A DNA stretch of 44,889 nucleotides, from the sequence record PQ850624.1. One strand, written 5' to 3'. A model generated the notes under the pieces. That model was given only the letters and a program-made list of their open reading frames with translations, was not told the origin of the DNA and did not search any database. Origin of the DNA: Escherichia phage RuthEpting_Bas85. Shown here one piece after another: positions 3,469 through 43,256 of this stretch (positions are counted from its first letter, which is position 1; each line of letters begins with the position of its first letter). The position numbers and the translations under genes are program-made.

Positions 3469-4555
3469 TCAACATATGGCGGATCGCATGATTCGCCGTC
3501 ACATCTTCACCCAGCGCCTGAGCAATGACCAGGCGCGGCGGGTGTTGGCTATGTGGGAGAAGTTCCGGCCCACGTTACTTGGTAAGCTGACCGAGTTACT
3601 TGATGGCAAAAAGTCCATGAATAACAAGGCACTGACCACTCTGTTAACGCAAATCGACAAGACCGTCAAAACGGAACTGCGCACCGAGTTTAAAGCGCTG
3701 GCTGAAAGCCTTCAGGAGTTCGCCGACACCGAGGCTGATTATCTTGCCGATACATTAACGGCAGCGATCCAGCCAGCGGTCGCCGTACCTGCGGTTGAGG
3801 TAGTTGGCGTTGTGACCGGCGCGCAGATCGCAGCGACGGCTATGAAAAACCCATTCCAGGGAAACACCATGATGCAATGGCCTGATTCACTTTCTGAGTG
3901 GACCAGGACGCAGATCGGTAATCAGGTGCGCGCTGGATTCATCCAGGGAAAGCCGACTATGGAAATTATCGCGGACGTAAGGCGCGCGCTCGGCGGTCGT
4001 AGTGCGCAGGCAATCTCAAGCGTTGTTAAGTCCGCAGTAAACCACTATGCGGCGACCGCCCGCGAATTAATGGTAAAAGCTAATGACGATATTCTCGAAG
4101 GTCGCCAATGGTTGGCTACATTGGATACACACACATCACCTATGTGCCAGCTACGCGATCGCCTGTTTTATCCAGTTGATGTTACTCCCGACACCAAAGG
4201 AAAGCGCGGCGGGAAAGTGGTGGCTGGGACACAATATGGCGCTGGTCCGGGCAAGCTGCATTATTGCTGCCGGTCTACGGAGACGTGGAAAGTCAAAGGC
4301 ATGGAAGATTGGCCCAGTGGTAAGCGTCCGGCACTGAAGGCTGACGCGGGTCGATTGCTGAGTGAGCAGGTCGACGCGCAGACTGATTTCTTCTCATGGG
4401 TACAGCGCCAGCCGCGCCATATTCTGGAGGAATTATATGGGGTGCAGCGCGCAGACCAGATTATGCGCGGCGTGAAAGTGCCGAAGATGTTCACCGATAC
4501 TGGCGAACTAATGACTATCGCACAGATTAAAAACCGGGGGTTATGGCGTGATTAA
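3452..4555 (+). CDS. head morphogenesis protein (Mu F / SPP1 gp7-like)
   Basis: 367 aa overlapping portal end; minor-head-protein-like motifs (WLATLDTHTSPMCQ, Cys-rich C-terminal half). Confidence 0.7.
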   Translation: MARTINQHMADRMIRRHIFTQRLSNDQARRVLAMWEKFRPTLLGKLTELLDGKKSMNNKALTTLLTQIDKTVKTELRTEFKALAESLQEFADTEADYLADTLTAAIQPAVAVPAVEVVGVVTGAQIAATAMKNPFQGNTMMQWPDSLSEWTRTQIGNQVRAGFIQGKPTMEIIADVRRALGGRSAQAISSVVKSAVNHYAATARELMVKANDDILEGRQWLATLDTHTSPMCQLRDRLFYPVDVTPDTKGKRGGKVVAGTQYGAGPGKLHYCCRSTETWKVKGMEDWPSGKRPALKADAGRLLSEQVDAQTDFFSWVQRQPRHILEELYGVQRADQIMRGVKVPKMFTDTGELMTIAQIKNRGLWRD

Positions 4556-4856
4556 ATATGCAGCGATTGGACTGGTTATCGGTCTGGCGGTTGGATTCTG
4601 GCAGGGTGATTCCTACCGCACTGGCGTTGTGGCGAAAGCGGCGCAAGAAGCGCAAGCCGAAGCCCAACGGCAGCAAACTAAGGTTGTAGAGGGGTCGGTG
4701 AAGGCTGAGCAAGCCCGCGACGTGGAATACCGGACTATCACGAAAGAGGTTGTAAAATATGTTACGCGTCCTAACCGTCCTGATTGTAGTTTTGATGCTG
4801 AGCGCGTGCGGATCAAGCAAAGCGCCATCGACGCCGCTAACCGAGTCGGTCTATAG
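4548..4856 (+). CDS. Rz-like inner-membrane spanin (putative)
   Basis: GTG start; N-terminal TM segment (IKYAAIGLVIGLAVGFW) followed by Ala/Gln/Glu-rich coiled-coil region; contains an embedded +1-frame lipoprotein ORF. Confidence 0.5.
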   Translation: MIKYAAIGLVIGLAVGFWQGDSYRTGVVAKAAQEAQAEAQRQQTKVVEGSVKAEQARDVEYRTITKEVVKYVTRPNRPDCSFDAERVRIKQSAIDAANRVGL

Positions 4857-4989
4857 ACCGCCTTGCACCTTTGAGAATGCCTCGGCAGATCCAGACGAGG
4901 ACTTGCTTGTTGATGTTAAAAATATGGAATGCGGGGCTAAGCTGAGGGCGCAAGTGCTGGAGTTGCAGAAAATAATTCGGGGGCCGTAA
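4759..4989 (+). CDS. Rz1-like outer-membrane lipoprotein spanin (putative)
   Basis: 76 aa, RBS AGAGG; signal peptide with lipobox LSAC; Pro-containing mature part; starts inside and extends past the preceding ORF (overlapped Rz/Rz1 architecture). Confidence 0.5.
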   Translation: MLRVLTVLIVVLMLSACGSSKAPSTPLTESVYRPPCTFENASADPDEDLLVDVKNMECGAKLRAQVLELQKIIRGP

Positions 4990-5002
4990 TGGCCCCCTTT
5001 TT
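4979..5002. terminator. bidirectional rho-independent terminator
   Basis: GGGGGCC-gtaat-GGCCCCC followed by TTTTT; sits between convergent genes (Rz1 stop 4989, minus gene stop 5004). Confidence 0.7.
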
Positions 5003-5003
5003 G

Positions 5004-5768
5004 TTAGCGCGGAATACCGCAAATCTCGTTTAACGTCTTCACGTCCAGCGCTACTGCCGTTGACTTCGGCTTGTCCGGGTATGGAATGAACTGTTCAACT
5101 TCAGGCCACGCCGCGATCAGCTTCTTGTCAGTATTGTGCATATCCAGCACGCCGGTAACAGTTAGTTTGAACGCGTCATACTTCGCACGCAATTCACGGC
5201 GGGCCTTGTCGTTGCGGTCCAGTCGCTTGCAGAAATCATGATCTGCCGGGTAGTCTGCGCGACCGCGCGGGAGATATATCGGCAGCGCTTTTCCATCTTC
5301 GTCCACTTCGCACACTGACGCGAGCATAATTTCCTCGTACCCCGGTACAATATCGCTGAGGTCCGGCGCGAGCTTATTCGTATATTTATCTTCCCAGTAT
5401 CCGCGATGAACGCGGTATTTACGACCGTCGCCGCTCAATGACAAGGTGCGAACGTTACCGCCTGCGTTGATTTCGAAAGTGGCGTCATAAACGCTGCCGA
5501 TACCTTTCGGGCGGTCGGTGTTATAGCTATATGTCGCCTTGTTGGTATATACGCTGACGCCGTACATCTGCGACTGGTCATCGCGGATTGATACAATATA
5601 TGCGCGTAGCTCGGCGAACGTGTGAATGCCTTTTGGCATACAGTGCAACGTGATGTCGTACGCCAGGTCGCGAGAGTCCATCATGATTTTTTTGGCTTCA
5701 GTCGCGATTTCGTGGTCGCGCAGGATGTTAGCCAGAATCTGGTTTTTAATGTCTTTTGTCAGTCTCAT
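5004..5768 (-). CDS. hypothetical protein (opposite-strand moron in head region)
   Basis: 254-aa ORF, ATG start with RBS GAGGA; no motif recognised; opposite orientation to the flanking structural genes. Confidence 0.5.
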   Translation of the reverse strand: MRLTKDIKNQILANILRDHEIATEAKKIMMDSRDLAYDITLHCMPKGIHTFAELRAYIVSIRDDQSQMYGVSVYTNKATYSYNTDRPKGIGSVYDATFEINAGGNVRTLSLSGDGRKYRVHRGYWEDKYTNKLAPDLSDIVPGYEEIMLASVCEVDEDGKALPIYLPRGRADYPADHDFCKRLDRNDKARRELRAKYDAFKLTVTGVLDMHNTDKKLIAAWPEVEQFIPYPDKPKSTAVALDVKTLNEICGIPR

Positions 5769-5807
5769 TTTTGTGTCCTCAAGGTTGGGGCTTCCGCCCC
5801 ATTTGGT

Positions 5808-6122
5808 TTAGTTAAACTTGATGTTTCCACCGGTGGAAGTTAAGCGAGCGCATACAGCTTCAACGGCATCGACGCACATGAAATCGTTAAAGGCTTCTAC
5901 CAGGGCGTTGATGAAAGATGCCGGAACCAGGCCACAAGCCGGATTTTCGAAGGTTGCGGAATTGATTGCAGCCTTTGCGGCTTCAGTAGCGTTCATGCTC
6001 TGGCACAGATTCAGCGCTTCCGCGTTACGCATTGCGTGAAAGGTAAAAGTATTGGCTACGGCAGCTTTATTGAAACGGGTCATTGCTGCGTCTACTGGAG
6101 TTGCTACGGTCATGTTATTCAT
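5808..6122 (-). CDS. hypothetical Ala-rich protein (moron)
   Basis: Start chosen at ATG 6122 (MNNMTV...) because of RBS AAGGA 8 nt upstream; ORF track extends to 6173 via TTG; no motif recognised. Confidence 0.4.
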   Translation of the reverse strand: MNNMTVATPVDAAMTRFNKAAVANTFTFHAMRNAEALNLCQSMNATEAAKAAINSATFENPACGLVPASFINALVEAFNDFMCVDAVEAVCARLTSTGGNIKFN

Positions 6123-6158
6123 TTTGTTTTCCTTCATATCTCTGTTGGTGTGCAACCA

Positions 6159-6187
6159 ATATAATGCAACCAATACCCGGATTGCAA
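6159..6187 (-). promoter_or_regulatory. sigma70-like promoter for minus-strand island, overlapped by two TGCAACCAAT motifs
   Basis: Minus-strand reading TTGCAA(6187-6182)-N17-TTATAT(6164-6159); plus strand carries TGCAACCAAT at 6151-6160 and 6165-6174 with a perfect TATAAT at 6160-6165. Confidence 0.4.
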
Positions 6188-6277
6188 GCGAATTTTGCGA
6201 TTATTTTTATCGCTGATAATATTAGAAGCGTGAAGTCGAGCGGGTGGCCCGCTCTGCCACAATCCCAGGGGGATAGC

Positions 6278-6982
6278 ATGAAACTTACTAAAGCAGAATA
6301 TGACGCGTTGCCGGAAAGCATGAAGGCGCTTTTTGTTGCCGACGGCGATGGGTATAAGTCAACATTTATGTCCGCTGACGAAGTACAGGCGGAAATCAAG
6401 GGTCTGAAAGACAACAACGCAAAGCTGGTGAGCGAGAAGAAAGCAGAAGCTGAACGCCGCGCCGAAGCCGAGCGCCTTGCGAAAGAGAAAGAGGACGCCG
6501 CCGCGCGCAAAAATGGCGACCTCGAAGCGATTGATAAGTCCTGGAAGGATAAGTTTGCAAAACACGAAGCAGACACATCGGGGAAAATCGAATCCTATCG
6601 CAAGCAGATCCACGACCTTACTATCGGCAGCGCTGCCAAAGACCTGGCCTCGAAGCTGTTCGGTAAGAATGCTGGCATCATGCAACGCCACGTAATGGAA
6701 CGCCTCGCGCTGGAAGACGGCGAAGACGGCAGCTTGAAAGTGCGCGTCTTGCAGGATGGCAAACCGTCCGCTCTGACTATGGACGAGCTTGAAAAAGAGT
6801 TCCGTAATAACGCCGATTTTGCATCCGTCCTAGCTGGCACGCCAGCCGGTGGCGCTCCGAGCAAACCGACACAGGTTATCGAAGATGCGAAGTCTAAAAT
6901 CACGATGGGCCATAGCTTCGGTATCACCGACCTGACGAAACAGGCAGGGGATATCATCGCTAAGATGGGCGACGACGAGTAA
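6278..6982 (+). CDS. head scaffolding protein (putative)
   Basis: Start at ATG 6278 (RBS AGGGGGA); 234 aa, charged, coiled-coil-like (AEAERRAEAERLAKEKEDAAARK); immediately upstream of major capsid gene. Confidence 0.6.
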   Translation: MKLTKAEYDALPESMKALFVADGDGYKSTFMSADEVQAEIKGLKDNNAKLVSEKKAEAERRAEAERLAKEKEDAAARKNGDLEAIDKSWKDKFAKHEADTSGKIESYRKQIHDLTIGSAAKDLASKLFGKNAGIMQRHVMERLALEDGEDGSLKVRVLQDGKPSALTMDELEKEFRNNADFASVLAGTPAGGAPSKPTQVIEDAKSKITMGHSFGITDLTKQAGDIIAKMGDDE

Positions 6983-11430: not shown

Positions 11431-11744
11431 TTGAGGCGGCGCGACGCTTTTATGGCCCGCCGCCACCCTCCGAAGATGTAGCCGCAAGTTTATGGGGCGC
11501 GGCCCCCGAAGATGTTTGTCCGTCTGTTGCGCTATGGCCCGACAACGCGAAGATAGTCGCAGTCTTCACAGATTGCTCTACGCAATGGCGCACCGGATTC
11601 GGTGGGGCATACGGCATCGACTACGGCGTGCTGGAATGGCTATTTAAGATGCACGGCATCGAAAACGAGCAACGTGCATTTAAAGATATCAAGCTAATGG
11701 AGCGAATCGCGCTTGATGAAATGGCGCAACAAAACCCCGCATAA
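11068..11744 (+). CDS. tail assembly chaperone GT fusion via programmed -1 frameshift
   Basis: The -1 frame is open from the slippery heptamer A-AAA-AAC (11421-11427) to TAA at 11742-11744 and encodes a gpT-like tail (GGAYGIDYGVLEWLFKMHGIENEQRAF). Confidence 0.6.
11421..11427 (+). other. -1 ribosomal frameshift slippery site (A AAA AAC)
   Basis: Heptamer of form X-XXY-YYZ at the end of the G-like ORF; downstream -1 frame open for ~105 codons. Confidence 0.55.
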
Positions 11745-11748
11745 TGAA

Positions 11749-12018
11749 GCGGGACGGATCGGGACGTCCCGCTTTGTCCCGTTTTGTCCCGCCACCTGCA
11801 AAACTGCATACCTACTCACTTTCATTGCATAAACTAAAAGCGGGACGAGCGGGACGTCCCGATCCGTCCCGCCCCCTAAATGTGCATACCTATTCAGATT
11901 TCGTGCATAAAATAAGCGGGACAGAAAGCGGGACAAACATGGGGCGGGACAAAGCGGGACAGCACCCCGTCCCCGTCAGTGCTGCCGCGGGTTTTAGCCG
12001 ATCGGGACAAGCGGGACA
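11749..12018. repeat. iteron array A (GCGGGACA / TGTCCCGC, both orientations)
   Basis: At least 5 exact GCGGGACA copies (11916, 11928, 11944, 11954, 12011) plus GGGAC-core variants; two identical 12-bp palindromes CGGGACGTCCCG (11760-11771, 11850-11861); two tandem ~80-bp units carrying TGCATA...GCATAAA. Confidence 0.8.
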
Positions 12019-12023
12019 AACCC

Positions 12024-12072
12024 CAGTCTTTCAGACTAGACGGGGGTCAATGGCCCCCCTCGTCTGAGACTG
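12024..12072 (+). other. long imperfect hairpin A (conserved copy at 39750-39799)
   Basis: CAGTCTTTCAGACTAGACGGGGG-tcaatg-GCCCCCCTCGTCTGAGACTG; arms identical in the second copy, loop differs. Confidence 0.6.
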
Positions 12073-12140
12073 AATAAGGTTTGTTTGAAATTCGCTGATA
12101 CAATGTCAATCGGCAACTGCATAAAAAAGGGGACTGCATA

Positions 12141-14786
12141 ATGGCAGATCAAGCAGCAGGCATCACGCTAAAGGCGGATGTTGCACAAATCAGAACGGCG
12201 AATACGGTGCTGGACTCATTCGCGCAGAAGTCCGAGAACACCGAAAACAAGGTTAAGAAATTAAACGACACACTCGGCAACACGAAAAAGGTGACGGGTG
12301 ACGCCGCGGGCGGAATGGGGAAGCTGGCAACTGAATCGCAGCGCGCCGCAGATGGCATGACGAAGCAGGAGCGACTTGCCAACCGCTTAGGCATGTCGAC
12401 TAAAAACCTGGGCTTTGCCTCACGTAACGCCGCATTTCAGTTACAGGATATTGCGGTCACGCTAGAGATGGGTATGCCGGTGCACCGCGTCATGATTCAG
12501 CAGTTACCGCAGTTAACCGGGGCATTCGGTGGGCTGGGTAATACGCTGCGTTATGTTGCTGGCTTTCTCGGTCCGGTAGGGATCGGCCTTGCTGCGGTAA
12601 CGGCGACGTTAGGCGTAGGCGTGGCGATTACGTCCCGTGCCGAAAACCAGGTAGCGGCGCTGAATAAGACGCTGGCGCTATCAGGTAATATCTCTGGCCT
12701 CACCGCTAACCAGATCCTGGTGCTGTCGGAGAACGCCGAACGCATGGGCGGGTCATTCAGCAAGACGCGTGACACAATTCAGGCACTGGCGGCAGCAGGT
12801 GTGAAAGCGGGTGCTGACTTCGGCGCACTGGCGAAAGTGGTGAACGACTTCGCGAAGGTGTCTAATCAGCCGATCGCTGACGTGGTGGAGTCCATCTCCA
12901 AATTGTCCAACGACCCGGTGGGCGGATTGCGCGCACTGGCGGACAAGTATCACGTCGTTACCGAGGCGCAGATCCAGCAGGTGCAGTCACTGGTTACGAC
13001 GGGTCGCGAAACTGAAGCGGTGGCGTTGGCTAACAAAACAGCCGCGGCGTCGTTCACCAGCATGACCAACGAGATCAAGTCCAACATGGGTACGCTTGAG
13101 CGATCGATGAACGTCGTCACATCGGCAGCTAAATCTATGTGGGATGCCATCCTGGATGTGGGCCGCGCGCAGTCCTCGAATGAGTCCGAGATGAAAGCGC
13201 GTGAGTCCTTGCAGCGCATGACAACGGCTTACTATGCCGAGATGAAAGCGGTAAACGCTGCCGGTGGGGTAATGACCGAGGCGCAGAAAGCACGAATTAA
13301 CATGCTTTATAGCGAACTGGTCGCCCAGGAGAAGGTCGTAGCGTCACTCACCCTGCGCAACCGTGCTGAGCGCGACAACGCCAGCGCCGCGGACAAATCA
13401 GCGAAGGCGAACGAGGAGGCCAACCGCACCGCCCGCGACCGCGCCGCGTTCGAGAAGGAATTTGCCACCAACGCGCAGAAGCGCGCCGACGAGATCGCCC
13501 GCCTCAATTTGCTGAATAAGCGCGGTGTGATTAACGAGAAAGAACTAGCCGAGGCGGTGAAGCAGGTCAACGAGCGCTACAAAGACCCCGCACCGAAGAA
13601 GGCGGCGGCTATTCGCGTGGATGCCGGTGTCAAAATGCTGGAGGTCGCACGGAGCGAACTGGCACAGCTTAAGGAGTCCGGCAAGCAGATCGAGGCCAAT
13701 GCAACAACGCAGACCCGCACGCAGCGCGCACAGGCCGCGTTGAATAAGCTGGTGGCGGATAATGAGCAGATGGTCGCCGCAAGCATGGAGCGCACTCTAA
13801 CGGCAGCAGAAAAGCAGCAAATGGCGGAGTTCGAGGCGGTTAAAGCGGTACGCGAGCAGATCGTCGAAGAAGCCAAATTGCTGGACGCGAAAGAGAAGCA
13901 GATCAAGGCACACGCCCAGGTCGAGGCATTCATCAAGAACCAGAACGCTGAGCTAAGGGCCACCGCTGCGGGCTATGCGCTTTCCACTCGCGAAGCGGCT
14001 AACCTGCGCGAAGAATTACAGCTAATTGACCGCCTTCAGCGTGTCGGCGCTAACGATACTGATATTGACAACGCGGTGTCTAAGCTGCGCGAAGTGCAGG
14101 AAGCACAGACCGGTGCTAACGCCTCGTTGTGGGATGGCTTCAGCCGCGGGCTTAAGGATAGCGTGGATGAAATGGGTAACGGCTACACGCAGATGACGTC
14201 ACTCACAAAATTCACGTTCGGCGCTATGCAGGACACGATGAACAAGTTTTTCGAGACGGGCAAGCTGAGCGCGAAGGATATGGTTAAGTCCATCCTGAGC
14301 GAATTAATCAAGCTGGCTACCTCGCAGGCGTTCAAATCCATCGTTAGCGCTTTCGGCGGTGACGGCGGCAAAAACGGATTGTTCGGCGCTATCTTCTCGG
14401 GCCTCACTAAGAACGCAGACGGCGGAGCGTACGCAGGAGGCAATCTAGCGGCCTATTCCGGGCAAGTGGTAAGCCAGCCTACCTTTTTCAGCTATGGCGT
14501 CCAGGAGTTCGCGAAGGGCGCAGGATTGATGGGTGAGGCTGGACCCGAGGCAATCATGCCACTGAAGCGCGGGCCGGATGGGAAACTGGGCGTTGCCGCT
14601 GCCGGTGTTGGTGGGGGTGGGATGATTGTAACGACCAACGTGAACATGGGGACCGGTAAAACGGACACCAGTGTGAGCGGACCGGACCCACGCACCGCGC
14701 AGGCGTTCGGCAAGCAAATCACCGAGTCGGTCAAGGCTGAGATCGTGAAAGCGACGAAACCGGGTGGAGTACTTTACAAACGATGA
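12141..14786 (+). CDS. tail tape measure protein
   Basis: 881 aa, long alpha-helical Ala/Gln/Glu-rich protein with hydrophobic segments and Gly-rich C-terminus; follows the G/GT chaperone. Confidence 0.9.
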   Translation: MADQAAGITLKADVAQIRTANTVLDSFAQKSENTENKVKKLNDTLGNTKKVTGDAAGGMGKLATESQRAADGMTKQERLANRLGMSTKNLGFASRNAAFQLQDIAVTLEMGMPVHRVMIQQLPQLTGAFGGLGNTLRYVAGFLGPVGIGLAAVTATLGVGVAITSRAENQVAALNKTLALSGNISGLTANQILVLSENAERMGGSFSKTRDTIQALAAAGVKAGADFGALAKVVNDFAKVSNQPIADVVESISKLSNDPVGGLRALADKYHVVTEAQIQQVQSLVTTGRETEAVALANKTAAASFTSMTNEIKSNMGTLERSMNVVTSAAKSMWDAILDVGRAQSSNESEMKARESLQRMTTAYYAEMKAVNAAGGVMTEAQKARINMLYSELVAQEKVVASLTLRNRAERDNASAADKSAKANEEANRTARDRAAFEKEFATNAQKRADEIARLNLLNKRGVINEKELAEAVKQVNERYKDPAPKKAAAIRVDAGVKMLEVARSELAQLKESGKQIEANATTQTRTQRAQAALNKLVADNEQMVAASMERTLTAAEKQQMAEFEAVKAVREQIVEEAKLLDAKEKQIKAHAQVEAFIKNQNAELRATAAGYALSTREAANLREELQLIDRLQRVGANDTDIDNAVSKLREVQEAQTGANASLWDGFSRGLKDSVDEMGNGYTQMTSLTKFTFGAMQDTMNKFFETGKLSAKDMVKSILSELIKLATSQAFKSIVSAFGGDGGKNGLFGAIFSGLTKNADGGAYAGGNLAAYSGQVVSQPTFFSYGVQEFAKGAGLMGEAGPEAIMPLKRGPDGKLGVAAAGVGGGGMIVTTNVNMGTGKTDTSVSGPDPRTAQAFGKQITESVKAEIVKATKPGGVLYKR

Positions 14787-17558: not shown

Positions 17559-20500
17559 CGATTATCTACGACGTCACGGGCCATAAAGGCGGCGGTGGCA
17601 AACAGCACACCCCACAGGAGACGCCTGATAGCCTGCATTCGCTGGCTAAAATCCGCATCTTGCTCGCACTGGGCGAGGGCGAATTTGAAGGCATTCCCGA
17701 CCCTAACGAATTACGGCAGCGTGTATACCTGGACGGCACACCGATCCAGAACGCCGACCTGTCGGATAACTTCCCCGGCGCGCGCGTGGAGTTCCGCCCC
17801 GGCACGCAGCACCAGGATGTGATTCACGGTTTTTCAGCGGTGGAAAGCGAGCAAACAGTAGGCGTAAAACTGGAACAGGGACAGCCGTGGGTCCGCCAGA
17901 TTTCGGACACCAGTCTGGACGCGGTGCGTATTCGAATCGGTATTCCGGCCCTGTACACTAACGAAGATAATGGCGACCTGGTGGGCGGGCGCATCGACTA
18001 TAAAATCGTTGTGTATACCGATAACGCCGATCCGCGCGAGTTTACATTCGCTGCCGTTGGTAAAACAATGTCGCTGTACGAGCGGGACCACCGCATCGAA
18101 TTACCGCCGAACGTTAACACCGGCTGGCGCGTGGAGGTGCACCGCACAACGACAGACTCCACATCGGCGAAAGTGGTCAACGATATCCAGGTACAATCCA
18201 TTACTGAGATTATCGACGCCCGCCTGCGTTACCCGCTAACCGCGCTGTTGTTCGTGGAGTTCGATGCTAAGGCGTTCCAGAACATCCCGCGTGTGTCCAT
18301 CAAGTGCAAAGGCCGCAAAGTGCTGATCCCGAACAACTACGACCCCGTGAACCATACCTATTCGGGCGATTGGGATGGCACATTTAAACGCGCCTGGACG
18401 GATAACCCGGCATGGCACTGGTACGATATTTGTATTACTGAGCGCTTCGGCCTCGGTCGTCGTGTCAAGCCACAAATGCTAAACCGTTACGCGCTCTACC
18501 AGATTGCGCAGCGCTGCGATCAGATGGTCAGTGACGGCAACGGCGGACAGGAAATCCGATTTAAGAATGATATGTACATTCAGTCGCAGACAGACGCCTG
18601 GACCGTGCTGAAGGATTTAGCGGCAATCTTTGCCGGTATGACTTGGTGGGGCAACCAGATGTTGAATATCGTCAGCGACCAGCCGGTCGCAGCGGTGTCG
18701 CACACTATCACCAACGCCTCGGTTATTGATGGTAGATTCGACTACGCATCAGGAAGCCAGAAAACTCGGTATTCCACGTTCTCGGTAGCCTACGGCAACC
18801 CGAAAAACCATTACGAGGACGCCATCGCAACGGGCCAGCGTGTCGAACTGGTGCGCCGCCATAAGATTAACCGCCTTGATATCACGGCGATCGGCTGTAC
18901 GCGAGAATCTGAAGCGCAACGCCGCGGGCACTGGGCGCTAATCTCCAACCAGCTTGACCAGCAAGTTAGCTTTAAGGTTGGCATGGAGGGGCTATTCTTT
19001 ATTCCGGGGAGCGTAGTTGCGATCGCGGATACTAACATTTCTGGCGGCTTCGAGACACGCGGCGGTCGCCTGTTGTCTGACCCCGGCACGCGCACCGTGC
19101 TGAACACAGACAGCGAAATCACGTTCCGCCCTGGTGATAAATTCCTGGTGCGCACCGATAGCGGTAATGTGGAGACTCGCGAGATTGCCAGCGTCAACGG
19201 CAACCAGGTCACGCTAAAAACCGCACTGGACGCCGACCCGATTCCTGATCAGCCGTTTTGCGTTGATGGCGATGATATCCAGTTGCAGAAGTTCCGCATC
19301 ACCGACCTGGAATATGACGACGCTACCAGCACTTTTTCGGTGCGCGGGATTGAGTACAACGATAGCAAATATGATGCCGTTGATAATGGCGCGCGTCTTG
19401 ATCCGGGTATATTCACGCAAGTGCCAGACGGCGTAATGAAGGGACCGGAATCCGTGACCATCACCACGTCGCAGATTTCATCACAAGGCCAGCTAATCAC
19501 TAACGTGGATATTGTATTCCCGCCGGTGAAGGATGCCGTTGTGTACGAAATCCAGTGGCGACGTACCAGCTTGCAGAATCTGGAAGTACAGTGGGGCAAC
19601 GACTGGGTGAACATCCCACGCACGGCATCGAACGGGGCGCACATCCCGAACGTGTTTTCTGGTAACTACCAGGCACGCGTCCGCGCGATCGGTATGGGCG
19701 AGATTTCATCCCCGTGGGTGTCATCCGCCATCACGCCGGTGGAGGGTCGTCTTGGTGGGCTTAACGCGCCTATCATCACCAACGCGATTTCGGGCCTTCA
19801 CCAAATTTTGTGGAAGTGGAACCACAACAACGCCGCGACGGATATTTCGTATACCGAGCTTGAAGTGCGCAAGCTGGGAGAAACGGAATGGAAATTCCTA
19901 ACCAACGTCCCATATCCGGGGTCGGACTATGCACAAACGTCGCTGGAGTTCGGGATCTATCAGCAGTTGCGCGCACGCGTAGCGGATAAAATCGGCAACC
20001 TGTCAGACTGGTCAGATCCGTTCGACGGGCAGGTGAGTGACAAAGTTGACGAGTACATGCAGGGGCTTGATGACGAGTTCTTGACTTCCGAGGACGGTAA
20101 ACACTTCCAGGAAGCAATCGACACCATTCCGCAAGGCATCTATGAGTCAATGCTTACGGACGCCCAGCAGTTATTCAACGCCCGCGCCGAGTATAAAGGG
20201 ATTTATGCGGAAATTACGGTGGCGTATAACGTGGCGGCGGATGCTCACGAAGCTGTAGCGCAACTGGAGACGTTGATCGGCACGCGCCTTGACGATGCGG
20301 AAGCGTCAATCCACACGTTGCAGACCGCGCAAAGCACGCATGAGCAAGCATTCGCCCAGTACCAACAAACTGTTGCCGCTAAGTTCGGGGAGCAGGAAGC
20401 TGCCATCCAGCAGGTACAAACGGCAACGGCAGACGTAGCTGGCGCGCTGGCGGAGTATAAGACCCAGGTCGCGGCACAGTTCGGACAGCAGTCCGCAGCT

Positions 20501-22269: not shown

Positions 22270-22298
22270 GAATGCAACCAATTTATGAGGATTCAGCT

Positions 22299-25292: not shown

Positions 25293-25314
25293 TGCAACCA
25301 ACCTATTGGTTGCA
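25293..25314. promoter_or_regulatory. palindromic TGCAACCAA-N4-TTGGTTGCA site
   Basis: Perfect 9-bp inverted arms; overlaps the stop of the HAD gene and precedes the 24719-25240 gene. Confidence 0.45.
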
Positions 25315-27154: not shown

Positions 27155-27234
27155 CGTAATGTCTCCAGGTATTAAAAAGGGCGTCCAACCGGACACCCTT
27201 AAGATAATGCAACCAATCTAATTACGCAACCAAT

Positions 27235-27558
27235 TTATTCATAAAAATTTGGGTCGCGCGCTACGTCTACCAGATACAAGTTGCTCATGCGGTTGCCGTA
27301 GTGCCCTGGCGTGCGCTGGCGGCACACAACGGCGAAGCCTGGAGGGATTGTATTGCCAGTCTCGATAATCCACGCCACGCGCGCGCCAGACAGCGTCTTG
27401 CCGTTGCATTCGATACGAGTACCGCCATCAGCGGTGTTAAGGTTGCCAATCTTGCAGCCGGTGGACTTCAGACGGATGACGCCGGTTTTGCTGTCGTAGG
27501 TGAATAACTGGTTAGTCATTGCAACCGAGAAGTCGATGGCTTCGAATGTAGTATTCAT
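27235..27558 (-). CDS. HNH_3/AP2-like domain protein with non-canonical catalytic positions
   Basis: 107 aa; pattern ARVAWIIETGNTIPPGFAVVCRQ...GNRMSNLYL parallels the HRLVW...G.IP.G..VDHID.N..NL scaffold of phage HNH_3 endonucleases, but the two His positions are Ala and Cys/Arg. Confidence 0.4.
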   Translation of the reverse strand: MNTTFEAIDFSVAMTNQLFTYDSKTGVIRLKSTGCKIGNLNTADGGTRIECNGKTLSGARVAWIIETGNTIPPGFAVVCRQRTPGHYGNRMSNLYLVDVARDPNFYE

Positions 27559-30150: not shown

Positions 30151-30429
30151 CTACGCGACCAATTCAGCAACCAATAAATCGCAGTCGGCTATGTTGTCAA
30201 TAACGCGAACGTCAGCACCGCGGCGGGCCATTCGCTCATGTTCTCGCACCTGGTGCGGCTTCGGTTTTCCTCCGGGGCGCTTCACTTCGACGAATACTAT
30301 GATGCCGTTGATGATAATAATCAGGTCGGGCGCACCTGCGCGCCCCTCCCATGCCAGCTTGCGGCAGAATCCGCCAACCTCTTTCACCCGTCGCATCAGG
30401 TGACTTTGAATCTTGCCTTCTGGTGTCAT
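30151..30429 (-). CDS. VRR-NUC domain nuclease
   Basis: 92 aa; PD-(D/E)xK signature GAPDLIII...VFVEVKRPGGKP...Q typical of VRR-NUC domains. Confidence 0.8.
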   Translation of the reverse strand: MTPEGKIQSHLMRRVKEVGGFCRKLAWEGRAGAPDLIIIINGIIVFVEVKRPGGKPKPHQVREHERMARRGADVRVIDNIADCDLLVAELVA

Positions 30430-33930: not shown

Positions 33931-34019
33931 TTTTCATTTCCTCATTTCGCATGTATCGGGGTTATTGTGAGCCACCCCGTTCGGCTTGGTTGCTAATTTA
34001 CTTGGTTGCGCCTAAGCGG

Positions 34020-36142: not shown

Positions 36143-36661
36143 TTAATCTTCTAATTCGAAATACGTTTCTACTATTTCTTTTAAATCTTTATGGAAGTCT
36201 TCGACGTCGTCATCTTCCAGCTTGGCGACGGATTTAATTTCGAACGCTTCCAGCAGATCATCAAATTCGTCGTTTGCGTCGTCGTCATCGCCGCCTGCGA
36301 TAATCGCGGCATACTGCTTGATTTCGTCGCGCATCTCTTTCAGAGGATCGGCTTCTTTCTTGCCTTTACCTTTCGCCGGTGCTTTTTTAGACTTCGCAGG
36401 TGCTTCTTCCTCGTCCGCGTCGTCGTCATCTTCTACGGCTTCTTTCTTAGCCTTGCCCTTTGCAGGCGCTTTTTTGGACTTCGCCGGTGCTTCATCTTCA
36501 GCGTCGTCATCTTCGACTACTTCTTCTTTTGCCTTGCTCTTAGCCGGGGCTTTCTTCGCTTCCTGTTTACCAACGGCAGCGCCAGCAGTTTCGTAATGCT
36601 TAGCGATGGTTTCCAGTGCTACTACGCCGCGAGTGATCAGGTTTACGATTTGCTCAAACAT
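36143..36661 (-). CDS. highly charged repeat protein (first gene of leftward early operon)
   Basis: 172 aa; ATG 36661 with RBS GGAGA; two ~29-aa tandem repeats (EDDDAEDEAPAKSKKAPAKGKAKKEAV) and an acidic C-terminal half. Confidence 0.5.
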   Translation of the reverse strand: MFEQIVNLITRGVVALETIAKHYETAGAAVGKQEAKKAPAKSKAKEEVVEDDDAEDEAPAKSKKAPAKGKAKKEAVEDDDDADEEEAPAKSKKAPAKGKGKKEADPLKEMRDEIKQYAAIIAGGDDDDANDEFDDLLEAFEIKSVAKLEDDDVEDFHKDLKEIVETYFELED

Positions 36662-36721: not shown

Positions 36722-36751
36722 ATAATAGATTGGTTGCAGGCGGGGTGTCAA
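36722..36751 (-). promoter_or_regulatory. leftward early promoter (sigma70-like) with embedded ATTGGTTGCA motif
   Basis: Minus-strand reading TTGACA(36751-36746)-N18-TATTAT(36727-36722); motif at 36729-36738 lies in the spacer; -35 is part of a 13-bp inverted repeat shared with the rightward promoter. Confidence 0.5.
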
Positions 36752-36930: not shown

Positions 36931-37260
36931 ATGCATATCCACGACGCTATCGAAATGTTAACTACGGCTGTTAGTGGCGAGACAAGCCGGTCCTGGGCTT
37001 ATACCGATGCCGTTGGCGCGGCGTTATTTGAGATCGAACGCCTGCGCAGTGCCGAAAAAGAATTGCGCGCCAAGCTGGAATTACTCAACGGTACGGCAGC
37101 AAGCAAGTTGCAAAAGCACAATGAAGAAATGGAAGAATACAAAAAGCAGGTTATCCGTTTGCGCGACGAGGGCAAGTCCTGGGCGATGATTGCCGAGTTG
37201 ACCGGAATTAATCAAAGCACCGTGCGCTCCTGGGTACGCAATAATAAAACTTCTAAGTAA
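36931..37260 (+). CDS. HTH-containing regulatory protein (putative)
   Basis: 109 aa; C-terminal HTH-like segment KSWAMIAELTGINQSTVRSWVRN; first gene of the rightward operon. Confidence 0.55.
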   Translation: MHIHDAIEMLTTAVSGETSRSWAYTDAVGAALFEIERLRSAEKELRAKLELLNGTAASKLQKHNEEMEEYKKQVIRLRDEGKSWAMIAELTGINQSTVRSWVRNNKTSK

Positions 37261-37270
37261 GGCATCGGCA

Positions 37271-39535
37271 ATGAGCTTAATTAAATTCGCAGTAACAAGA
37301 CCCGCTAAAAAAGGCGAAAAAGCCAGGGCGGAAAACTTCGAGATGACCACTGATGAATTTTTCGAATTTATCAATGATGCAAAAGAAATCTCCTCGGTGC
37401 ACATCAACAAGACTGAAGATAAAGCCGAGTATGCGCGCCGCAAGCGTAAGGCCGATGGCATCGTGGCCTATACCAATGATGGGTTACGCCGCAAGACCAG
37501 TGCGGTCGACCGCTCGATCCTGTTCTTCGATATTGACCGCACCGACACCCGCACATTACGCCGCTGCCGTAAAGCGTTCACCGACGCTGGTCTGGAGCAT
37601 GTATTCCACACCACGACCGGCGACCGTCACCCACTGAAAGGCGGCACACGTTGTGCCCGTTTCCTGGTGCTCACTGACAAGCCTGTACCGGCTGAAGACC
37701 TGGGCCGCGTCCAGTATGCGCTATTAGACCAACTGGGCCTGTCAGATGTGGACTTCGACGACTGCACGAAAGACACCAACCGCCTTATGTACCTGCCTCA
37801 CCAGCAGTCAGTCATTAAGTGCCACTACGGCAAGCGCGCCCGTGTCCGTCGTCTGCTTCGCCTGGCTGACAAGCTGGGAGTTGAGAAAGAGGAAGTGCGC
37901 CGCGAACTGACCCAGGGCGACGATGGCGTGGCGGACGGGATTCTGGATTGGTGCTTCCAGGCTGGCTTTGAGCCGCTGTCATCCGGTCGCGGTTATGAAG
38001 TGCCGTGCCCGAACGAGCACCTACACAGTGGTGAAGGGTCGACGGCTATCATGGTTAAGGATGGAGAGATCCGTTTCAAGTGTATGCACACCGGTAACGA
38101 GTGCTGTTCCGAACTGAACAAACACCAGCACCTGGCGCTGCGTCTGATCGGCATTCCGGACCACCTGAACGTCGAACCACACAATATGTCACGCAAGCAA
38201 ATCGCCGCCATCCTTCCGGGACTGGACGACGAGGAAGTGGAATCGTGCTATGAGCATATTGTTGATGCGGTCGGAGACGGCGACGAGTACGGCGAATGCA
38301 CCGACGCTGACCTGGACAACGAGCCGGTCGCACTATTCAGTAAGCACGACCCGATCATCGAAGGCCTGGTCAACTTCAAATCGACCTGGTATATGGCTGG
38401 TGAGTCGAACATTGGTAAGTCGTTCTACGTGCTGGGCCAGATGGGTGCTGTTGCCGCAGGTATTCCGTTCGGCGGTGCGAAGGTTGTCCAGTCGCATTGC
38501 TTCTATTTCGATGCGGAAGGCGGCGAAGCCTCAAACCAGCGTAAGGAAGCATTGCAGATTAAATATGAGCACGACCTCGACAAGCTGCACATTATCGATC
38601 TGCAATCACGCGGCTGGGATATCACCAGCAAGTCCGGCTTGCGCGAAGTTATCAGCTTTATCAACCGCACCGCTAACGGGGAGCCGGTTGGCCTGGTGGC
38701 CTTCGACTCACTAAACCAGACTGTAGCGCTGCGGTCCGCTGATGCCAAACCGTTCGACGAGAACAACGCAAGCGATATGGGTGAAGTGGTCAAAGCGCTG
38801 AAGTCCATTGCGGAAAATACAGGCGGCAGTGCGGGCGTCATCCATCACCCGGCTAAGGGCGCAAACGGCAGCAGATCGCCACGCGGGTCCGGCGCGCTTC
38901 ATGGTGCTGTTGATTCTGCGTTCTTCCTGGAACAGCCGGACGATAATCAGCCAGGCCAACTCAACCTGTATCACGAAAAATCCCGTAACGGCATCAAGCA
39001 AGCGCCGCGTGGCTTCGTCCTGCTCAAGTGCAAAGTTAAGGTGGATCTCCGTAAGTCTGATGCGTTCGAAGCCCACCAGTCCACCAGCACCGGGCCAGAC
39101 TTTGGTGATGTTGTTGCCGGTTGGGACGTCAAGCCGATCGCATCCACGCCGCGCGACGAGACTCTCTACCTCGTACCGGTCGCCCTGGCACCGTTCGCTA
39201 TAGAACAGGCGAAGGCAGCAGGCAAGGCAGCAGTTAAGGAAGAGAACACCGCCGGACCGCGCAACGAAAAAGAGAAGGTGCTTTATGCGGCACTGGAAAA
39301 ACTGATGGAAGATAACCCGGACCATACTGGATTCAGTAAATCGGCAATCGTCCGCCAGGCTGGACTTGCGAAAGGTGGCACATCGACGAAGGCAATCGAC
39401 GATATGGTGGAGCGCGGCGTGCTCGGATTTTATACAGATCCACACACCGGGGCCATCTATGGGTCGTCGAATCTGGTCATAAAATCGGATATACCCATCA
39501 CGCTTTCAGCGACCGATGATGACCTGAAAGATTAA
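37271..39535 (+). CDS. bifunctional primase-polymerase / helicase
   Basis: 754 aa; N-terminal AEP-primase-like motifs (ILFFDIDRTD, TTGDRHPLKGG), Cys/His zinc-binding segment, C-terminal RecA/DnaB-like ATPase (MAGESNIGKSF Walker A, LVAFDSLNQ Walker B). Confidence 0.8.
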   Translation: MSLIKFAVTRPAKKGEKARAENFEMTTDEFFEFINDAKEISSVHINKTEDKAEYARRKRKADGIVAYTNDGLRRKTSAVDRSILFFDIDRTDTRTLRRCRKAFTDAGLEHVFHTTTGDRHPLKGGTRCARFLVLTDKPVPAEDLGRVQYALLDQLGLSDVDFDDCTKDTNRLMYLPHQQSVIKCHYGKRARVRRLLRLADKLGVEKEEVRRELTQGDDGVADGILDWCFQAGFEPLSSGRGYEVPCPNEHLHSGEGSTAIMVKDGEIRFKCMHTGNECCSELNKHQHLALRLIGIPDHLNVEPHNMSRKQIAAILPGLDDEEVESCYEHIVDAVGDGDEYGECTDADLDNEPVALFSKHDPIIEGLVNFKSTWYMAGESNIGKSFYVLGQMGAVAAGIPFGGAKVVQSHCFYFDAEGGEASNQRKEALQIKYEHDLDKLHIIDLQSRGWDITSKSGLREVISFINRTANGEPVGLVAFDSLNQTVALRSADAKPFDENNASDMGEVVKALKSIAENTGGSAGVIHHPAKGANGSRSPRGSGALHGAVDSAFFLEQPDDNQPGQLNLYHEKSRNGIKQAPRGFVLLKCKVKVDLRKSDAFEAHQSTSTGPDFGDVVAGWDVKPIASTPRDETLYLVPVALAPFAIEQAKAAGKAAVKEENTAGPRNEKEKVLYAALEKLMEDNPDHTGFSKSAIVRQAGLAKGGTSTKAIDDMVERGVLGFYTDPHTGAIYGSSNLVIKSDIPITLSATDDDLKD

Positions 39536-39626
39536 ATTTTGCGCGCATTGGTTGCCAAATTGAGTGTTTTTAGCTGGTCGCATTGGTTGCCGTGTAGTGT
39601 AAATATAGTGAATAGTTATGCAGTTT

Positions 39627-39745
39627 TATTGCATAAAATAAGCGGGACAAAAAGCGGGACAGACAGGGGGCGGGACAAAGCGGGACAGCACCCCTTGTCC
39701 CGCCCGGATGGCGCGGCTTTCAGAGGAGCGGGACAGGCGGGACAA
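39627..39745. repeat. iteron array B (second copy)
   Basis: TTGCATAAAAT followed by six exact GCGGGACA copies (39642, 39654, 39670, 39680, 39728, 39737) and one inverted TGTCCCGC; ~85% identical to 11895-12018. Confidence 0.8.
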
Positions 39746-39749
39746 ACCC

Positions 39750-39799
39750 CAGTCTTTCAGACTAGACGGGGGTCAGTCGGCCCCCCTCGTCTGAGACTG
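39750..39799 (+). other. long imperfect hairpin B
   Basis: CAGTCTTTCAGACTAGACGGGGG-tcagtcg-GCCCCCCTCGTCTGAGACTG; arms identical to hairpin A, loop one nt longer. Confidence 0.6.
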
Positions 39800-40017
39800 C
39801 ATAAAATCCGGGATTGCATAATGTACGGCAGCATGACGTGAATTGCGGTCGTCGACGAACTAGGCAACCAATGCGAGTTGTATTATGGGTGGTGAAAAAT
39901 GCAGTTTGCAGTTACAGCAGATAGCGATCAACTTTTTCATACGCATGATTAATATTGGTTGCATTCAGCCTGGCACCCTGCTAGATTGGTTGCACCCCAA
40001 CGAGAGGACCAAACAAA

Positions 40018-40506: not shown

Positions 40507-40776
40507 ATGGGCCGTAGCCGAGCTAAACAGCTTTCTTGGCATATTCCCCTGCATTGCATACGAATATGGGCTAAGAACGCGATTGAGGGCGATTACGTGT
40601 ACTGGTGCTATCGCGATGACGTGAAGCCACTTACGCAGACCCGCTACTTGCACCAGTTCGCAGCACAACACGATTTCAGGGTGCGGACTTCCTTGCAACC
40701 AATGGGGATACGTATTACATTACGCCGGAAGCCCGCCGTTGAGCGGGTAGGCAAACACTGGAGACTGAGCAAATGA
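40507..40776 (+). CDS. hypothetical protein
   Basis: 89-aa ORF; contains one in-coding TGCAACCAAT copy (40694-40703). Confidence 0.4.
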   Translation: MGRSRAKQLSWHIPLHCIRIWAKNAIEGDYVYWCYRDDVKPLTQTRYLHQFAAQHDFRVRTSLQPMGIRITLRRKPAVERVGKHWRLSK

Positions 40777-43217: not shown

Positions 43218-43256
43218 TTGACTTGCAACCAACATAGGGGCCATACTGCAACCAAT
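43218..43256 (+). promoter_or_regulatory. sigma70-like promoter overlapped by two TGCAACCAA(C/T) motifs
   Basis: TTGACT(43218-43223)-N18-CATACT(43242-43247); motifs at 43224-43233 and 43247-43256. Confidence 0.45.

Follow-up and report, generated by a model that had tools for sequence, protein, structure and literature searches.

Directly 3' of the helicase-primase gene of Escherichia phage RuthEpting_Bas85 lies a short array of G-rich repeats followed by a hairpin, and nearly the same segment stands a second time just before the tape-measure gene. What does such an element do, and why is it present twice? We addressed this question in the whole 44,889-nucleotide stretch of record PQ850624.1 (referred to here as the window), which is a complete Dhillonvirus genome (98.7% identity to Escherichia phage Haito_Bas83, 3 kb tested) with a gene order collinear with the 71-gene annotation of Haito_Bas83. 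The structural genes occupy the + strand from 1 to ~24 kb, and the - strand carries a T7-like replication set between 24 and 36 kb (i.e., a family A polymerase, a Gp2.5-like SSB, an exonuclease, and a second helicase). Beyond 36 kb, coding returns to the + strand, where the gene for the 754-aa helicase-primase (37271-39535) is preceded by that for a 109-aa HTH protein and followed by small genes and the lysis genes. The GC skew of the window (minimum near 36.5 kb) tracks gene and transcription direction only.

The original prediction described the segment after the helicase-primase gene as a second copy, ~85% identical and in direct orientation, of an element ~27.7 kb away. Self-comparison bore this out: copy B (39627-39800) and copy A (11900-12072) share 86.4% identity over 198 nt in BLAST and 87% in MAFFT, and the direct orientation and the distance of 27.7 kb can be read from the positions. 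The lead TGCATAAAATAAGCGGGACA is found at 39630-39649 in copy B and at 11904-11923 in copy A. The repeated unit reads (G/A)CGGGACA. Copy B holds the six exact GCGGGACA units that had been predicted, all on the + strand (iterons 1 to 4 at 39642, 39654, 39670, and 39680, spanning 39642-39687; iterons 5 and 6 at 39728 and 39737, spanning 39728-39744), and their spacing (i.e., 12, 16, 10, 48, and 9 nt) is the same in copy A. The single inverted unit, TGTCCCGC (39696-39703), pairs with iteron 3 in a predicted hairpin that holds iteron 4 in its loop (39668-39705; -15.4 kcal/mol, z = -3.2). This hairpin is labelled "terminator" in the record of phage CS16, yet it has no T-tract. A conserved irregular hairpin of 50 nt, CAGTCTTTCAGACTAGACGGGGG...CCCCCCTCGTCTGAGACTG, closes the element (39750-39799; -13.3 kcal/mol, z = -3.2; called the main hairpin below), and its loop differs by 1 nt between the two copies, as had been noted. 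The element segment is G+C-rich.

The interval between the helicase-primase stop codon and copy B contains two ATTGGTTGCC motifs (39547-39590, + strand), which belong to a family that recurs in intergenic regions across the whole genome. An AT-rich leader with GTGAATAGTTAT and TGCATAA motifs inside it (39596-39641) is a candidate unwinding region; it is short (~46 bp), with only a modestly raised A+T content (~70%). The sequence GTGAATAGTTAT(TC) is also found directly left of the iterons in phage GRNsp27. Across the window there are no perfect DnaA boxes, and one-mismatch sites are not enriched (30 vs. 27 expected); copy A has two of these, and copy B has none. A reading of TGCATAA as a DnaA box was dropped on these grounds.

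Copy A lies between the tail-chaperone and tape-measure genes, and its locus is larger than first described. Copy A proper (11900-12073, + strand) comprises the lead TGCATAAAATAA, iterons at 11916, 11928, 11944, 11954, 12002, and 12011, and the hairpin at 12024-12072. It is preceded by modules 0 and 1 (11744-11876; i.e., 11744-11795 and 11838-11876), which are two palindromic hairpins with nine CGGGAC/GTCCCG units and fold z scores of -4.0 and -4.6. In all, 17 units are set at 11749-12017. Sodalis phage SO-1 has a 34-nt perfect palindrome here. The hairpins of both loci fold better than shuffled sequence (z = -3.2 to -4.6). The homology between A and B extends beyond the hairpin through CTGCATAAAA-N8-TGCATAATG as far as the start codon of the tape-measure gene, interrupted only by a 45-nt insertion on the A side; next to copy B, CTGCATAAAATCCGGGATTGCATAATG (39797-39822, + strand) is homologous to the locus A segment that ends in this start codon. 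The insertion carries an extended -10-like sequence, TGATACAAT (12096-12104), which is followed by CTGCATAAAAAAGGGGACTGCATAATG (together 12096-12143, + strand; tape-measure start at 12141) and is kept in SO-1 and Ioannina. GCGGGAC is the most clustered 7-mer of the genome: it occurs 25 times in the window (8.3 expected; none of 100 shuffles reached 25), and 18 of these occurrences are inside the two loci.

The persistence of the second copy among relatives was a check that the original prediction had set for itself. The element is present in all 158 Dhillonvirus records, at 330 places in total, with two copies in nearly all of them. Two repeat regions are marked in the SO-1 record, "region A" ahead of the tape-measure gene and "region B" behind the helicase-primase; region B is described there as having direct, inverted, and palindromic repeats and similarity to region A. 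Thus, the two-copy element itself had already been flagged in one database record and is not a new observation. Our literature search found no paper that deals with these repeats, with the origin of a Dhillonvirus, or with CGGGACA iterons.

Since single-nucleotide spacing changes and frame-breaking 1-nt indels occur among the copies of relatives, so that they have no reading frame in common, neither of the two ORFs that overlap the elements had a match in a Pfam search, and most annotators leave the element blank, it is non-coding, in line with the proposal of a DNA or RNA element rather than a protein. Several records call hypothetical proteins there, and the CDS calls over the elements in Bas83 are probably spurious. 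We aligned 32 copies taken from 16 genomes. Of the 36 columns in CGGGAC cores, 31 were invariant, compared with 19 of 67 spacer columns; the contrast between invariant cores and variable spacers argues for selection on the CGGGAC motif. In the same alignment, 38 of the 58 columns after the array were invariant, and the 5' arm of the main hairpin showed no variation. Iterons 4 and 5 are separated by 40 nt whose sequence is position-specific (i.e., of A type or B type). The earlier statement that substitutions preserve both the cores and the stem held for the cores, most of which are invariant; the stem is conserved only, with no compensatory pair changes seen in these 32 copies. Covariation therefore speaks neither for nor against an RNA role.

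The distance between A and B was smaller within a genome than between genomes (0.188 vs. 0.211; permutation p = 0.0002), and Ioannina and LM40P1 carry the CGGGACGTCCCG fourth unit and the CCTCCGTC 3' arm in both copies. The copies therefore co-evolve or now and then exchange sequence. Could the repeat, then, be a selfish or neutral duplication, spread by recombination and kept as harmless or as a recombination substrate? Homology running into the tape-measure start codon shows a segmental duplication, and the copies undergo occasional gene conversion. However, neutrality accords poorly with an element found in 158 of 158 records, nearly always at both positions, and in other lineages too; invariant cores amid variable spacers point to selection on the motif, and recombination between A and B would delete essential genes. 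We consider this the least probable of all the explanations, with hardly any weight.

A structured RNA read from the + strand at both sites (i.e., a processing site, an antitermination signal, or a protein sponge, comparable to paired put/nut sites) would account for the orientation of both copies along the surrounding genes and for their stable hairpins, and a G-rich repeat with A-rich spacers could act as single-stranded protein-binding RNA. Rfam 15 gave no family match at the gathering threshold anywhere in the window, no stem shows a compensatory change, locus A and the metagenomic arrays described below have units on either strand, and the full 7- to 8-mer is conserved in double-strand palindromes such as CGGGACGTCCCG; an RNA function is thus very unlikely. 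We also set aside the ideas of a G-quadruplex and a CsrA sponge, given that the whole 7- to 8-mer, rather than only GGG or GGA, is conserved and that both orientations occur.

The position of copy B next to a putative replication initiator gene was central to the original prediction, and comparisons with relatives of the helicase-primase strengthened this tie. The 3' side of the orthologous gene always holds a non-coding gap of 0.4 to 0.9 kb with lineage-specific short repeats; in GRNsp27, the gap appears as a run of very short ORF calls separated by gaps. The most similar relative (L134; 68% helicase-primase identity) has CGGGAC units and the same hairpin. The others have TCGCCCCG and many GCAACCAAC (eiAU; ~45% over the whole protein in our alignment), ACTCGCAA (L135; 49%), GCTGCCAAC (L136; 46%), or GGGGAGA (GRNsp27; 43%). 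The authors of the eiAU genome reported 58% identity, for the part of the helicase-primase that they had called. The repeat thus changes with the initiator lineage, with five different repeats at one position in five lineages. Such a lineage-specific swap would also fit another co-evolving phage protein.

Dhillonvirus, L134/L138 (76% A-B identity), and eiAU have a second site before the tape-measure gene, and in eiAU the changed motif appears at both sites; only a weak or doubtful one can be seen in L136/L139, and GRNsp27 has none. The core of the main hairpin, GACGGGGG..CCCCTCGTC, likewise occurs upstream of the eiAU tape-measure gene and in L134/L138. The patchy distribution of the second site, set against the constant presence of repeats 3' of the helicase gene, shows that the repeats stood at site B ancestrally and that site A was added later.

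The association with the helicase gene extends to unrelated phages. We scanned IMG/VR with GCGGGACANNGCGGGACA, blind to gene content, and obtained 120 loci. An array was defined as at least seven CGGGAC/GTCCCG units in 400 bp, which yielded 55 loci in a first tally and, once one (L045) was dropped as a Dhillonvirus locus A, 54 non-Dhillonvirus loci on unrelated contigs; 41 loci that matched the pattern but had no array served as controls. A helicase-family ORF was located within 3 kb in 45 of the 54 array loci and in 4 of the 41 controls (odds ratio, 46; p = 2e-13; HMM recount; 41 of 55 in the first tally). The proteins of the linked family join a primase to an AAA_25 (RepA-like) helicase; their primase module varies (i.e., Prim-Pol, or Toprim_3 plus zinc ribbon) and AAA_25 is constant. 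The helicase-primase of the window matches the family over the helicase domain only (E = 1e-29). The arrays start at the helicase stop codon or up to ~300 bp before it, with some units inside the 3' coding end, and 70% of the units have the same direction relative to the helicase gene as in the window. The array contigs include both G+C-rich and A+T-rich ones, and the genes upstream of the array-linked helicases are diverse (SSB, polymerase, nuclease), with no consistent small regulator. The element of the window is thus one case of a far wider association between CGGGACA arrays and AAA_25 primase-helicases, which has apparently been undescribed so far.

The same survey bears on the possibility that copy B is part of a packaging site. 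Its units and hairpin would then be small-terminase sites beside a pac cleavage site, and copy A would be a non-functional or regulatory relic. Known pac sites (e.g., those of P1 and SPP1) consist of clustered short repeats. At least six GenBank records, which are independent and come from different laboratories (101114B2, WFI, BMA1, Zar3M, PTXU06, and PEC9), are cut at exactly the position equivalent to 39914|39915 of the window, beyond the copy B hairpin (~115 bp to its right). PhageTerm studies call headful packaging for Opt-212, BF9, and UDS3lw, in the last case "with a preferred pac site," and give no position. The record of BF9 (headful/pac by PhageTerm) nevertheless ends elsewhere, and the COS end of one study maps to 27196-27205. 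Several metagenomic loci have the helicase gene on one side of the array and terS/terL on the other. Nevertheless, a terminase large-subunit gene was found within 3 kb in 13 of 55 array loci, far below the helicase linkage (41 of 55, or 45 of 54 after the recount), and in most cases the helicase gene was the nearer of the two to the array. The arrays abut or overlap the 3' end of the helicase gene, while terminase genes are 60 to 2,900 bp off or, in many loci with ample flanking sequence, absent. We rated packaging below a role in replication because the motif tracks helicase rather than terminase genes, because terS of the window phage is 5 kb from copy B, and because the second copy, in the tail operon, is kept in three lineages; a packaging role is improbable on this evidence.

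Transcriptional punctuation would give the hairpins the part of terminators or attenuators and the CGGGACA units that of operators (e.g., for the 109-aa HTH protein), in an early-late switch or in setting the level of tape-measure and tail expression. Both copies do stand between co-directional gene blocks and are followed by promoter-like sequences (i.e., TGATACAAT at 12096-12104 and TTGCAT-N17-TAGATT at 39958-39986), which, however, scored below the sigma-70 threshold of our scan. A terminator was called inside copy B by another annotator (in CS16), and an HTH gene is directly upstream of the helicase-primase in four lineages. Scans for intrinsic terminators and sigma-70 promoters gave nothing at the copy B hairpins, whose tails read GAGACTGCATAAAA and GGATGGCG with no T-tract; the main hairpin in particular was not picked up. 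At locus A, five terminator-like hairpins were called among the CGGGAC modules (11734-11861), together with one 9-of-12 promoter-like site (11716-11745); the only T-runs there are in module 0, inside its 3' arm. The metagenomic arrays run into the helicase 3' coding end and have no consistent small-regulator neighbour, and a transcriptional role does not explain why the arrays are so tightly linked to AAA_25 helicases. A primarily transcriptional function is therefore unlikely, if somewhat less so than packaging.

Which protein would recognize the units? The helicase-primase (37271-39535, + strand) has a primase-like N terminus with a zinc motif and an AAA_25 domain at residues 357 to 531 (E = 3e-19), the only Pfam domain found; it belongs to PHROG 3228 ("replicative helicase-primase") and carries the same annotation in Bas83. 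An AF2 model of its last 135 aa (18-sequence alignment) predicts a winged helix at about residues 666 to 737 (coding region 39266-39481, + strand), with a core pLDDT of 78 to 89 and the topology H-b-H-H-b-wing-b, and this is a candidate iteron-binding module. Foldseek searches of the PDB with the C-terminal model placed MarR, ArsR, and ORC winged helices at the top, as weak matches (best E = 4.6e-3). The C-terminal ~100 residues are the least conserved part of the protein relative to eiAU (16 to 20% identity, compared with 50 to 70% in the helicase domain), and only three matches came back when the C-terminal fragment by itself was used as the query of a protein search. The alternative candidate is the 109-aa HTH protein encoded just upstream (36931-37260, + strand; Pfam HTH_23/Sigma70_r4_2); a small HTH gene has the same position in L134, L135, and L136. 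We take the predicted winged helix at the C terminus of the helicase-primase as the likeliest binder, and the upstream HTH protein as a less likely one. Comparisons of the Dhillonvirus C-terminal domain with those of the metagenomic array-linked helicases gave nothing in phmmer and no significant similarity in hhalign (probability, 1 to 11%); one binding module common to all CGGGAC-linked helicases thus finds no support in these comparisons.

Several known replication systems resemble parts of this arrangement. The original prediction named phage P4 ori/crr as the analogue, and the layout, though not the protein family, agrees with it. In the P4 record, the alpha gene (4636-6969) is followed by a terminator and then by crr (4291-4590). 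Ten 8-bp repeats, pointing either way, make up crr, and six copies of the crr repeats are found in ori, 4.5 kb from crr. Both genomes thus have a repeat array directly 3' of a primase-helicase gene (in the window, stop codon at 39535 and units from 39642) and a second, distant array (27.7 kb away here, compared with 4.5 kb in P4), and the crr repeats, too, are irregularly spaced as well as in both orientations. The alpha protein binds ori and crr via a C-terminal winged-helix domain. The 8-bp "ori type 1" repeats of P4 read TGTTCACC, unlike the (G/A)CGGGACA units of the window. Since alpha combines Zn_Ribbon_Prim, Toprim_3, D5_N/SF3, and Pox_D5 domains, while the window protein has only the RepA-like AAA_25 and shows no BLASTP similarity to it (E > 5), the window system is best described as an analogue of P4 in layout and not as a relative.

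In the pri-rep-ori modules of SaPI/PICI elements, the origin reportedly lies immediately 3' of rep, with 6- to 8-bp iterons flanking an AT-rich segment and with island-specific iteron/Rep pairs. These descriptions recall the short iterons 3' of the helicase gene, the candidate AT-rich unwinding region, and the lineage-specific repeats seen here; the differences are another helicase family, one site instead of two, and a satellite rather than a virulent phage. Phage SPP1 is said to have two homologous repeat sites, oriL and oriR, ~30 kb apart, in the replication region and the late region, both bound by G38P. It shares with the window two homologous repeat-bearing sites, one by the replication genes and one in the late region, but uses a separate origin-binding protein and a DnaB-type helicase with a loader, and its repeats are unrelated. 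RSF1010 RepA is the archetype of AAA_25, and oriV of this plasmid combines iterons, GC-rich and AT-rich segments, and hairpins (ssiA/ssiB) that serve as primase start signals. An iterons-plus-hairpin anatomy with an AAA_25 helicase is thus common to both systems; the RSF1010 iterons, however, are 20 bp long and bound by a separate RepC, its primase is a separate protein, and we found no sequence relation between the DNA elements. Finally, the lambda ori lies inside gene O, and the incA iterons of P1 lie 3' of repA as a second iteron set that acts in negative control. Repeats in or just after the gene of a known or putative initiator are therefore a shared feature, including the metagenomic units in the 3' coding end, although the proteins and repeat sequences are unrelated.

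Taken together, our analyses favor the reading that copy B is a cis-acting replication element (i.e., an origin or an auxiliary site) for the adjacent helicase-primase and that copy A is its diverged duplicate, which we hold to be probable with a fair margin of doubt. We prefer this reading because of the conservation of the cores, the genus-wide retention of the element, the helicase association recovered blind to gene content, and the swap of repeats alongside a divergent predicted winged helix. The joint motif change at both eiAU sites, the within-genome similarity of A and B, and the P4-like layout support it as well. In the mechanism that we propose, the replication initiator would bind the CGGGACA units as independent short sites, and the bound protein would assemble or load the hexameric helicase at the adjoining AT-rich leader. 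More speculatively, the conserved hairpin may be extruded as a single strand and offer a defined start for the primase domain. By analogy, the second copy may serve as another origin (compare SPP1 oriL/oriR) or as a co-bound distant partner (compare P4 ori/crr).

A broader proposal can be offered only tentatively, and we would sooner doubt it than accept it as a whole: CGGGACA arrays may represent a widespread origin type of phage primase/AAA_25 fusions, irrespective of the primase module and the host G+C content and located partly inside the C-terminal coding sequence of the initiator. The second copy in Dhillonvirus and its sister lineages might then be a crr-like partner acting over 27.7 kb or might couple replication to tail expression. 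If so, how the same short motif is used by proteins with seemingly unrelated C-terminal domains becomes a question in its own right. Dhillonviruses are common E. coli phages that are used in therapy and in host-range collections. If the origin and its cognate binding domain were defined, cleaner annotation and engineered replicons would become possible, as would tests of how a T7-like replisome starts on a circularly permuted genome. Beyond this genus, a CGGGACA array placed where an AAA_25 primase-helicase gene ends is a recognizable signature that could flag origins in many uncultured phages.

Hypothetical-protein ORFs cover both iteron-plus-hairpin elements (39539-39841 over copy B, downstream of the helicase-primase gene, and 11744-12067 over copy A, upstream of the tape-measure gene) in the Dhillonvirus relative Haito_Bas83 (i.e., Bas83_0056, 0020, and 0021) and in some other records. 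Since no family match was found for these ORFs and relatives show frame-breaking indels in them, they are probably not genes.

The flanks of the two elements carry further motifs. At 12096-12104, an extended -10-like sequence, TGATACAAT, follows the copy A hairpin and precedes the start of the tape-measure gene, and it is kept in the relatives SO-1 and Ioannina; a separate promoter may serve the tape-measure gene and the distal tail genes. The motif GTGAATAGTTAT occurs at 39608-39619, immediately left of the copy B iterons, and Salmonella phage GRNsp27 carries GTGAATAGTTATTC twice (18064-18098 of the compared locus L129) immediately left of its GGGGAGA iterons, which are unrelated to those of copy B. 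This flanking motif is common to the two phages.

The window also contains 22 sites of a second motif family, ATTGGTTGC(A/C), at ≤1 mismatch (12.8 expected; 0 of 100 shuffles reach the observed number). The sites are intergenic almost without exception and frequently paired (6152-6174, 22274-22282, 25294-25313, 27209-27234, 30155-30175, 33985-34009, 36729-36737, 39547-39590, 39864-39872, 39954-39993, 40695-40703, and 43225-43256), and five of them flank copy B. Phage eiAU contains 23 occurrences of GCAACCAA, concentrated in regions A and B, its counterparts of the two elements. The family may represent a phage-specific promoter or operator element, and the TTGCAT portion of the motif is only a weak -35. 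Separately, an internal repeat of ~87 nt (36349-36556; 77% identity over 128 nt) sits in the divergent early promoter region, within a minus-strand ORF (36143-36661) encoding a low-complexity charged protein.

In GenBank, at least six Dhillonvirus records (101114B2, WFI, BMA1, Zar3M, PTXU06, and PEC9) that come from different laboratories start and end exactly at 39914|39915, ~115 bp to the right of copy B. This shared cut suggests a physical end, conceivably generated by pac cleavage. For phage EE09, PhageTerm called a 10-nt "COS 5' end" (ATCTTAAGGG), which maps to 27196-27205 (minus strand) beside a ATTGGTTGC pair, a hairpin, and an HNH endonuclease gene (27235-27558); this position may be a site-specific nick instead of a cos site. 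The linear eiAU record (KF772233) is broken within region A, inside a run of CAACAATGCAACCAAC repeats that are found at both of its ends, and the break is probably an assembly break at a repeat rather than a physical end.

In metagenomic primase-helicase genes, some of the CGGGAC units fall within the 3' end of the coding sequence (e.g., L102, 1174-1415; L063, 2891-3155; L015, 2461-2723), where tgg-CGG-GAC encodes a conserved W-R-D of the C-terminal domain. In these loci, the array overlaps the gene of its putative binding domain, a likeness to lambda, in which ori lies inside gene O. Another viral contig (L086, 5471-5833) carries two mutually inverted CGGGAC arrays enclosing ~330 bp of very A+T-rich DNA, with no helicase nearby; this arrangement is textbook origin-like.
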